Shown here piece by piece: positions 6,691 through 7,136 of a stretch of DNA of 64,000 nucleotides. The stretch lies in assembly GCF_053078305.1 (NCBI RefSeq), contig NZ_CP166879.1. One strand, 5' to 3'. The first letter of the stretch is position 1. Each line of letters begins with the position of its first letter. The notes beneath the pieces are model-generated. The model made no database searches and was not told the DNA's origin. It saw only the letters and a list, made by a program, of their open reading frames with translations. The translations under genes and the position numbers were made by a program.

Positions 6691-6846
6691 TTACTTCTCA
6701 GATTCGTAGTCTACGAAGACAGCAACCTCCGTCTGGCCGGTTCGGATTCGTACCTCGCAGAGGTCTTTCCTCGTTACCAGTGCCGTCACAACAACGGTAA
6801 TACAGATGACGATCAGGGCGATTAACATCGCCTTTTGCTGCTTCAT
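6691..6846 (-). CDS. hok: Hok-family type I toxin; overlapping mok reading frame extends to 6903
   Basis: Product MKQQKAMLIALIVICITVVVTALVTRKDLCEVRIRTGQTEVAVFVDYESEK is a canonical Hok/Gef peptide; longer overlapping frame upstream is typical of mok. Confidence 0.9.
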   Translation of the reverse strand: MKQQKAMLIALIVICITVVVTALVTRKDLCEVRIRTGQTEVAVFVDYESEK

Positions 6847-7136
6847 AGCCTGCTTCTCCTTGCCTTTCGGCACGTAAGAGGCTAACCTACGTTTGTGAAG
6901 CATAGATTGGGCCTCAGATTAATGTTAAGCGTCCTGCAAGACGCGTAATGTTAACTGGGGCTTTTCTCTGTCTGCCTTACGGCGGCATGCCCGAGGCAGA
7001 CAGCCTCAAGCACCCGCAGCAATTCTACTTAACTCTTCTTTCCCCGCAAACCGTTTTTATCCCCAGCGGCAAATCGAATACACCACCAGCGCCACCGCCA
7101 TTGCAATACCAACATTTGAGAAGGCCTCAGGCCAGC

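Follow-up and report, generated by a model that had tools for sequence, protein, structure and literature searches.

The question raised by this locus is whether a small hok-like gene on the minus strand of a prophage is part of a complete type I toxin-antitoxin system and, if so, to which of the known hok/sok systems it belongs and what it does for the phage that carries it. The window analysed here (the whole 64,000-nt stretch of contig NZ_CP166879.1, assembly GCF_053078305.1) had received a first-pass annotation in which positions 6691-6903 were described as a prophage hok/mok locus with a canonical Hok peptide, an overlapping mok frame and a sok antisense RNA expected just upstream on the opposite strand. 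In our analysis the locus is very probably a complete type I system, hok/mok/sok of hokW type, lying as a moron in the nin region of a lambdoid E. coli prophage by yccA and working by a mechanism like that of plasmid R1 and of Sp5.

The Hok and mok reading frames

On the minus strand, 6691-6903 is an open frame of 70 codons that corresponds to mok and contains the 51-aa Hok in frame; its translation is MLHKRRLASYVPKGKEKQAMKQQKAMLIALIVICITVVVTALVTRKDLCEVRIRTGQTEVAVFVDYESEK, or, in a two-part form, MLHKRRLASYVPKGKEKQA-MKQQKAMLIALIVICITVVVTALVTRKDLCEVRIRTGQTEVAVFVDYESEK. The hok ORF proper occupies 6691-6846 (-), with its start ATG at 6846-6844, its stop codon at 6693-6691 and a Shine-Dalgarno (SD) sequence, AAGGAG, at 6861-6856. 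Thus the interval originally assigned to the locus is a real ORF, but its full span is that of mok, and hok itself takes up only 6846-6691. The product matched the full Pfam model PF01848 (HOK_GEF) over residues 25-66 with an E-value of 8.4e-23 and 80.1 bits against a cut-off of 22, and the mok/Hok frame also matched PHROG 251, "MokW-like host killing", at 6.9e-32. Peptides of the Hok/Gef family are about 50 aa long, with a transmembrane helix near the N-terminus and a conserved periplasmic portion containing a Cys; Cys30 is present in this Hok. Matches to the NCBIfam Hok subfamily models fell below the curated cut-offs (51.8 vs 73) and were therefore not used for naming. Translation of 6691-6903 revealed no frameshift or internal stop in the mok/hok ORF, and tblastn found no second hok copy in the window. 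The full-model match and the intact ORF together confirm the Hok peptide that had been proposed from the letters alone, and the uninterrupted frame disposes of the concern that a frameshift might have disabled it.

The mok frame is likewise present and intact. It was said to overlap hok, which it does, though as an in-frame N-terminal extension of 19 codons and not as a separate reading frame; mokC and mokW are annotated in the same way. In R1, the mok and hok starts are 58 nt apart and the two frames therefore differ (PMC9841398); in the R1-like IncF locus used for comparison here the distance is 57 nt. The mok gene of the window has its own SD, GAGG, 8 nt upstream of the ATG at 6903, and from this SD and the overlap with hok we predict that translation of the two would be coupled.

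The hok mRNA leader and its promoter

The leader (7015-6841, -) matched the Rfam family RF01794, "sok", at 117.7 bits against a gathering score of 59 (E 3.8e-26), covering model positions 1-157 of 157, which is far beyond chance. The RF01794 consensus ends in the hok SD and AUG, and the match therefore identifies the hok leader, i.e. the complement of Sok, and not the Sok strand. The predicted core of the hok mRNA (6620-7015, -) runs from the +1 at G7015 to just past fbi and corresponds to the "full-length" mRNA of the paradigm. Immediately upstream lies a putative hok/mok promoter (7022-7049, -), read from the sequence, with a -35-like TTGCGG at 7049-7044 and a -10 TAGAAT at 7027-7022, 6 nt upstream of the predicted +1; its position corresponds to the TATAAT-6 nt-GGGTGCTTGAGG layout of K-12 hokC. 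Conservation among the relatives begins at this promoter, where entropy drops from 1.64 to 0.34, and the homology boundaries of related viral loci on the promoter side fall at about 7020-7040. A generic sigma-70 promoter scan flagged neither the hok nor the Sok promoter, both being below its threshold of four of six hexamer positions; the hok promoter was missed because its -35 is weak. The promoter calls therefore rest on homology and, for Sok, on a published -10 mutant. The same scan gave a minus-strand match at 6928-6899, inside the leader, which has no counterpart in the hok/sok model and was rejected.

Read from the 5' end, the mRNA opens with tac (7004-7015, -; GGGUGCUUGAGG), which is invariant in 47 close relatives, and continues with a leader hairpin at 7003-6968 and with the upstream complementary box, ucb (6956-6963, -), an anti-SD of mok whose partner is either the mok SD or tac. 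A long hairpin at 6961-6911 is the complement of the Sok terminator stem. Next comes the Sok-target (sokT) hairpin (6878-6915, -), which holds the mok SD (GAGG, 6914-6911), the mok ATG (6903-6901), a loop and dcb (GCCUC, 6882-6878). Its loop (6900-6892, -) is CUUCACAAA, 9 nt long with the YUNR motif UUCA, and the unpaired 5' tail of Sok has its complement in this loop and in the 5' arm. Just past the hok stop lies a G+C-rich hairpin of nine base pairs (6660-6681, -), at which the truncated, active mRNA probably ends and which would act as its exonuclease barrier; the R1-like locus has a GGCGGGC-GCAG-GCCCGCC hairpin at the matching position. The last element is fbi (6627-6639, -; CCUCAA-C-GCACCC), the partner of tac.

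The translational-activation elements tac, fbi, ucb and dcb are therefore all present, pairing as in the R1 model, and the comparison with known hok/sok loci that the first-pass annotation had proposed as a check located tac, ucb, the mok SD, dcb, fbi and the Sok promoter. All the hok/sok regulatory parts are present and undamaged.

The Sok antisense RNA

The Sok gene lies on the plus strand, as had been expected. It is not wholly upstream of mok, since its 5' end overlaps the mok start by 9 nt. The Sok promoter (6860-6888, +) consists of a -35 TTGCCT at 6860-6865, a 17-nt spacer and a -10 TAACCT at 6883-6888, and its hexamers are nearly invariant among the relatives. The -10 is identical to the TAACCT of sokW that was mutated in the Sp5 work, where its destruction in a "pro-less" construct abolished antitoxin activity (Takada et al. 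2021, PMC8621323). The predicted antisense RNA (6895-6965, +), with a +1 read from the sequence at G6895, is about 71 nt long and collinear with the annotated 71-nt sokW of 933W and with K-12 sokC. Folding of 6895-6969 (75 nt, +) gave a free 5' tail, a long hairpin and a U-run at -29.6 kcal/mol (z = -4.7), and none of 200 shuffled sequences folded as well. The tip of the hairpin carries a 16-nt palindromic insert, while the most variable part of Sok among the relatives is its 5' tail. With promoter, tail, hairpin and U-run all found, the absence of sok, which was to have counted against the locus, can be set aside.

Predicted conformers and their comparative support

The hok/sok model of R1 comprises full-length, truncated and metastable states of the mRNA (as summarised in PMC9841398), and three folds predicted in silico from the window sequence reproduce the published full-length, truncated and nascent conformers. 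The full-length fold (396 nt, 7015-6620) reached -164.6 kcal/mol (z = -5.8) with both of its ends paired. Here tac (7015-7004) pairs with fbi (6639-6627) in 12 bp with one bulged C, in the MFE and in the centroid structure, and the mok SD is taken up by ucb in a helix of 6961-6951 with 6922-6911. In the truncated fold (7015-6660), tac pairs instead with ucb (7015-7008 with 6963-6957) and dcb takes up the mok SD, the two closing the sokT hairpin at its base; that hairpin forms only in the truncated fold and in a nascent fold of 156 nt. In a nascent fold of 116 nt, tac pairs with the segment immediately downstream, giving a metastable hairpin.

These helices were compared in a set of 47 distinct relatives from viral contigs, 933W, Rac-SA53 and an R1-like plasmid. 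The tac/fbi, tac/ucb, SD/ucb and SD/dcb helices were 94-100% canonical among the relatives, and the tac/fbi pairs 99.3% canonical over 48 sequences, with entropy near 0 across tac, ucb, the SDs, fbi and the Sok promoter. The 3' hairpin at 6660-6681 has five pairs with compensatory double changes. For tac/fbi there were no double changes among the 47 close relatives, because the elements are invariant; what variation fbi shows is almost all at the bulge (C to T or A). In the R1-like locus, however, GGCGC/GCGCC stands in place of the GGGUGC/GCACCC of the window, so that both strands differ and the tac/fbi pairing is kept. The tac/fbi helix is thus supported by conservation, by variation confined to the bulge and by the comparison with the R1-like locus.

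The 3' side and the extent of the cassette

On its 3' side the locus departs from the R1 type. Most close relatives have a textbook terminator (CCCGCTTCGGCGGGTTTTTT; AACCCGCTTCGGCGGGTTTTTT) within about 10 nt after fbi; it is absent in the window, where a terminator scan predicted no intrinsic terminator between 6626 and the downstream gene. The window and the 933W type diverge from the relatives inside the post-fbi terminator hairpin and then run into that gene, which encodes a YgiW/YdeI protein with the BOF type of OB-fold (6225-6569, -; Pfam BOF, 3e-33) and lies directly downstream of hok. No promoter was predicted between fbi and the BOF gene either. The tac/fbi helix followed by GCGCUUU was considered as a possible terminator and is unsupported, having only three U's. 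Given the missing terminator, the primary transcript may span about 830 nt through the BOF gene, which, as far as these scans indicate, is probably co-transcribed with hok, and the route by which fbi is removed may differ from that of R1. The experimentally active hokW is also without a post-fbi terminator, and its absence is therefore no argument against membership in the family: an intrinsic terminator after fbi is a typical trait of the R1 type, not a defining one.

Beyond the BOF gene, a terminator-like hairpin with a T-run (6187-6209, -) marks the end of the cassette and is kept in 933W. At the upstream edge we found an unannotated hydrophobic ORF of 27 codons (7057-7140, -) with the SD AAGGAGG, the ATG of which overlaps the stop of the preceding gene (ATGA) in the window and in 933W. 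In 27 of 75 related viral loci the ORF is kept with the pattern M[ST]WPEAF...VVYSICRW, and neither PHROG nor PADLOC has a family that matches it. The similarity to 933W breaks off at 6178 and 7142. Among 80 related viral loci, about 55 share only the core from 7035 to 6620, homology ending at about 6620, and 24 share the extension through the BOF gene. The hokW-type cassette therefore looks like a moron of about 965 bp made up of the 27-codon ORF, hok/mok/sok, the BOF gene and a terminator.

Prophage context and distribution

The cassette lies in the nin region (P to Q), co-oriented with the early-right genes, and the order on its strand is replication protein P, DUF1627, Ea22-like, DUF551, hok, YgiW/BOF, DUF968, RusA and Q. 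The prophage ends at an integrase adjoining yccA, tusE and rlmI. These lambdoid flanking genes, P, DUF551, RusA and Q among them, and the integrase by yccA bear out the prophage setting given in the first-pass annotation.

The queried 491-nt stretch is 100% identical in seven RefSeq STEC genomes, and 4720 of 5426 complete E. coli genomes hold related copies, with 2 places per genome as the median and 10 as the maximum. Strain 2013C-3033 has an identical hok locus in a different, mosaic prophage integrated at ompW, from which it follows that the cassette moves between phages. In RefSeq the gene of the window is often named "hokD" or "Hok/Gef family protein".

Comparison with known hok/sok systems

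The closest characterised relative is hokW/mokW/sokW of the Shiga-toxin phage 933W (GenBank AF125520) and of the Sakai prophage Sp5. The 491-nt query is 92.7% identical in nucleotides to the 933W locus, and for the 966 nt that correspond to window 6178-7142 the value is 94%. Its Hok is identical at 49 of 51 residues, the two changes (L16I and I19V) being conservative, and its mokW is in frame with 70 codons, like mok in the window. The Sok promoter hexamers, the start of Sok relative to mok and the 16-nt insert in the Sok hairpin are the same, and its sokW, 71 nt long, starts 8 nt inside mokW. Also shared are the missing terminator after fbi, the downstream YgiW/BOF gene (L0136), the terminator behind it and the 27-codon ORF. 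The differences are few: over the Sok 5' tail and mok codons 3-6 about 5 of 19 positions have changed (GUGAAGCAUAGAUUGGGCC against GUUCAGCAUGGAUUGAGCC), the 5' hairpin and the Sok hairpin have other loops, and the 933W cassette is at the right end of its prophage, beyond the tail genes, whereas that of the window lies between DUF551 and DUF968/RusA/Q. The traits by which we delimit the hokW subtype, i.e. the 27-codon ORF, the insert, the BOF gene and the terminator behind it, with none after fbi, are all found in the window. The locus is essentially an allele of the characterised hokW, and hence an element of a kind already described.

R1 hok/sok shares with the window its gene order and the elements tac, ucb, mok SD, dcb, fbi and 3' hairpin, and its Sok promoter overlaps the hok translation-initiation region as in the window. 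The R1 Hok, however, is only about 42% identical to that of the window, the Sok hairpin of the window is 16 nt longer than that of R1, and the R1-like locus has a hairpin and U-run after fbi where the window has none. R1 hok/sok is moreover a plasmid stabilisation system, whereas the locus described here is a single-copy prophage moron.

Two K-12 loci show what has been lost from chromosomal copies. K-12 hokD (relF) of the cryptic prophage Qin holds the equivalent prophage position, beside rem, ydfU (DUF968) and Q, and its Hok is identical to that of the window at 45 of 51 residues, but promoter, leader, mok and sok are gone, relBE lies directly upstream, and similarity begins only at query position 201. 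K-12 hokC (gef) has an in-frame mokC, as in the window, the same GGGTGCTTGAGG 5' end and a 59-nt sokC that starts 8 nt inside mokC; there, IS186 sits 20 nt past the stop codon and has removed fbi, whereas the copy in the window is complete.

Proposed mechanism and role

The mechanism that we propose follows the R1 and Sp5 systems. A weak constitutive promoter would give a stable hok mRNA starting at G7015, and in the nascent mRNA tac would be held in the metastable 5' hairpin. Once fbi is transcribed, tac and fbi would pair and ucb would hide the mok SD, and in this form the mRNA would neither be translated nor bind Sok. Slow trimming of the 3' end to the hairpin at 6681-6660 would remove fbi, upon which tac would pair with ucb, and the SD region and dcb would form the Sok-target hairpin. 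The unstable Sok would bind that hairpin through its 5' tail, blocking translation of mok and of the coupled hok, and RNase III would cut the duplex of Sok and hok mRNA. If Sok synthesis stops, as it would for hokW upon RecA-dependent prophage induction, the trimmed mRNA would be translated and Hok would enter the inner membrane and depolarise or lyse the cell.

In Sp5, HokW is toxic and SokW neutralises it, partly via RNase III and Hfq, and after mitomycin C SokW disappears and HokW appears in the inner membrane in a RecA-dependent manner (PMC8621323). Deletion of hokW/sokW from Sp5 delayed growth arrest by about 40 min and halved phage release (PMC8621323), while without induction it had no effect on growth (Takada et al. 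2021, PMC8621323). It should be noted that in the deletion a kanamycin cassette had been left in front of the BOF gene (PMC8621323), so that part of the Sp5 phenotype could be polar. Since the Sp5 HokW is 96% identical to Hok of the window, we infer that the window allele would kill and that its Sok would neutralise it. The output in this prophage would then most likely be earlier membrane damage that aids lysis and phage release, as for hokW, with addiction of the post-segregational type and exclusion of other phages as possible side effects. The first-pass annotation had mentioned interference with phage infection and stabilisation of prophages as roles of hok/sok loci; the former has been shown for plasmid R1, but the role demonstrated for hokW of Sp5 is in lysis and release and not in prophage stabilisation.

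A variant of the lysis role deserves mention, although we regard it as tentative and rather doubtful. Here the cassette would be a three-gene moron (27-aa peptide, mok/hok and YgiW/BOF) that, being without a hok terminator, is wired into antiterminated early transcription and serves as a lysis helper timed by induction. Read-through in the sense direction, set off by induction, would run into the convergent Sok promoter and shut it down, and the resulting hok transcripts, extended at the 5' end, would be unable to form the tac/fbi lock. In 933W the cassette occupies the right end of the prophage and has the orientation of int and N, and after excision and circularisation it would therefore lie downstream of int in the pL direction. 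In a crude orientation test of 46 distinct contexts, 34 had the longest flanking ORF of either side on the same strand as hok, which agrees with read-through but does not discriminate, because phage genes are mostly co-oriented.

Returning to the proposed R1/Sp5-like mechanism, several other accounts of what the locus does have to be weighed against it. A labile antitoxin is a logical sensor of host shut-off, and type I-III toxin-antitoxin systems act in abortive infection in this way. It could thus be argued that the primary role of the cassette is the exclusion of superinfecting lytic phages, in which the invader shuts off host transcription, Sok is no longer made and Hok brings about early cell death. 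In work cited second-hand, R1 hok/sok carried on a high-copy plasmid lowered the plating of T4 by 42% and made plaques smaller by about 85%, and hok is about four-fold enriched in E. coli prophages (2026 preprint). We nevertheless consider defence an unlikely primary role: the R1 effect is modest and was obtained with a high-copy plasmid, the measured effect of hokW favours its own phage, neither Hok nor the BOF protein nor the 27-codon ORF has a PADLOC match, and hok is reported not to be enriched near defence systems. The slow 3' processing of the hok mRNA would also be ill-suited to fast lytic infections. Addiction, i.e. the killing of cells that lose the prophage or the cassette by excision, curing or deletion, seems to us somewhat less improbable than defence, if still unlikely as the main role. 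Plasmid hok/sok classically acts in this way, a link between type I toxin-antitoxin systems and the maintenance of prophages has been stated (2026 preprint), and the architecture of stable mRNA and labile Sok is complete here. On the other hand, no hokW-type locus is known to act in this way, the deletion made by Takada et al. had no growth effect in the absence of induction, and single-copy chromosomal hok loci have failed in tests of post-segregational killing. Since genomes carry 2 related loci in the median and as many as 10, related Sok RNAs might moreover cross-protect, though the Sok 5' tail is the part that varies most.

The locus could also be a silent relic, intact in sequence and inert in this host like the chromosomal hok loci of K-12. 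Such loci have decayed in more than one way, hokC being cut by IS186 and the hokD leader being lost to relBE, and hokA, hokB and hokC were reported to give neither post-segregational killing nor activation by rifampicin; the canonical terminator after fbi is missing here as well. Against this, the regulatory elements of the window are intact and constrained, with entropy near 0 and compensatory changes in the 3' hairpin, hokW is experimentally active without that terminator, and HokD of K-12, a close relative that served as a control in that work, proved toxic, as did 42 of the 45 Hok homologues examined in another study. We therefore regard inertness as highly improbable.

In itself the locus adds little, being a further intact copy of a cassette annotated in AF125520 and characterised in 2021. 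Its practical value is for annotation, as RefSeq gives the 51-aa gene alone, without mok, Sok, the 27-codon ORF or the RNA elements. The points of modest interest are the 3' end of hokW-type mRNA, the possible co-transcription of hok with the BOF gene, and read-through as a possible means of shutting off Sok on induction. If the latter were true, occlusion of the Sok promoter would account for the RecA-dependent loss of SokW, and the cassette would be a helper in the timing of lysis rather than an addiction or defence module.

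Transcription unit and boundaries of the hok cassette

While most relatives carry an intrinsic terminator after fbi, the 3' element of the hok mRNA (6627-6639), the hokW-type locus has none in the corresponding stretch (6570-6626, minus strand). The next gene after fbi encodes the YgiW/BOF protein, and no promoter was predicted ahead of it; this downstream region (6187-6569, minus strand) ends with a terminator (6209-6187). Taken together, the missing terminator after fbi, the lack of a predicted BOF promoter and the terminator at 6209-6187 suggest that hok and BOF form one operon. 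At the upstream edge of the cassette there is an unannotated, hydrophobic 27-codon ORF, MSWPEAFSNVGIAMAVALVVYSICRWG (7057-7140, minus strand), which has a strong SD and whose ATG overlaps the stop codon of the DUF551 gene (ATGA). This ORF had no family match in PHROG or PADLOC, and it is kept at the same edge of the hok cassette in the Shiga-toxin phage 933W and in 27 of the 75 related viral loci.

The codon for Tyr47 of Hok, UAC, falls within a predicted 7-nt loop, CUACGAA, closed by a 4-bp stem (6699-6713, minus strand), a loop that matches the anticodon loop of tRNA-Arg(ACG) recognised by TadA. For hokB, A-to-I editing that converts Tyr to Cys is reported in a preprint, where a similar phenomenon is also described for Cys46 of hokC, hokD and hokE.

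Prophage and chromosomal surroundings

Other RNA genes are present in the prophage. The sRNA STnc100 occurs in two copies on the minus strand (1-203, clipped at the window edge, and 483-689; 154 and 135 bits), followed by three phage-borne tRNA genes (1814-2062, minus strand; Ile, Arg and Arg by the annotation of a related prophage), which lie downstream of the antiterminator gene Q, as do those of Stx-type lambdoid phages. Adjoining matches to isrK (58 bits) and the C4 antisense RNA (78 bits) at 14718-14906 on the plus strand sit in the prophage segment that separates the replication/immunity genes from the exonuclease-integrase end. From ~19.8 kb on the window is chromosomal, running through yccA, tusE, yccX and rlmI onward towards pyrD, and this part includes a PyrD leader (46804-46877, minus strand; 98 bits).

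The ompW-integrated prophage of strain 2013C-3033, which is not part of the window, has a hok locus identical to that of the window. Another Hok/Gef gene of this prophage, shorter than the first, is flanked by gpJ and the tail-fibre gene (L088 11463-11603). Downstream of Q there is a MazF/PemK toxin gene (L001 12533-12934).

Sok and the mok start

At 6841-7015 the strand matched by RF01794, the Rfam 'sok' model, is the hok-sense one, with the model's consensus ending at the hok SD and AUG; matches to this model therefore mark the hok leader, and the strand reported for them is opposite to that of the Sok RNA. The most variable block of the otherwise highly conserved cassette is the 10 nt at 6896-6905 (mean entropy 0.90), which comprises the Sok recognition tail and its target loop, and the 23-nt mok-start block around it exists in 19 variants among 48 sequences. 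Such variability in the Sok tail and target loop could limit cross-talk among the several hok loci of a genome.
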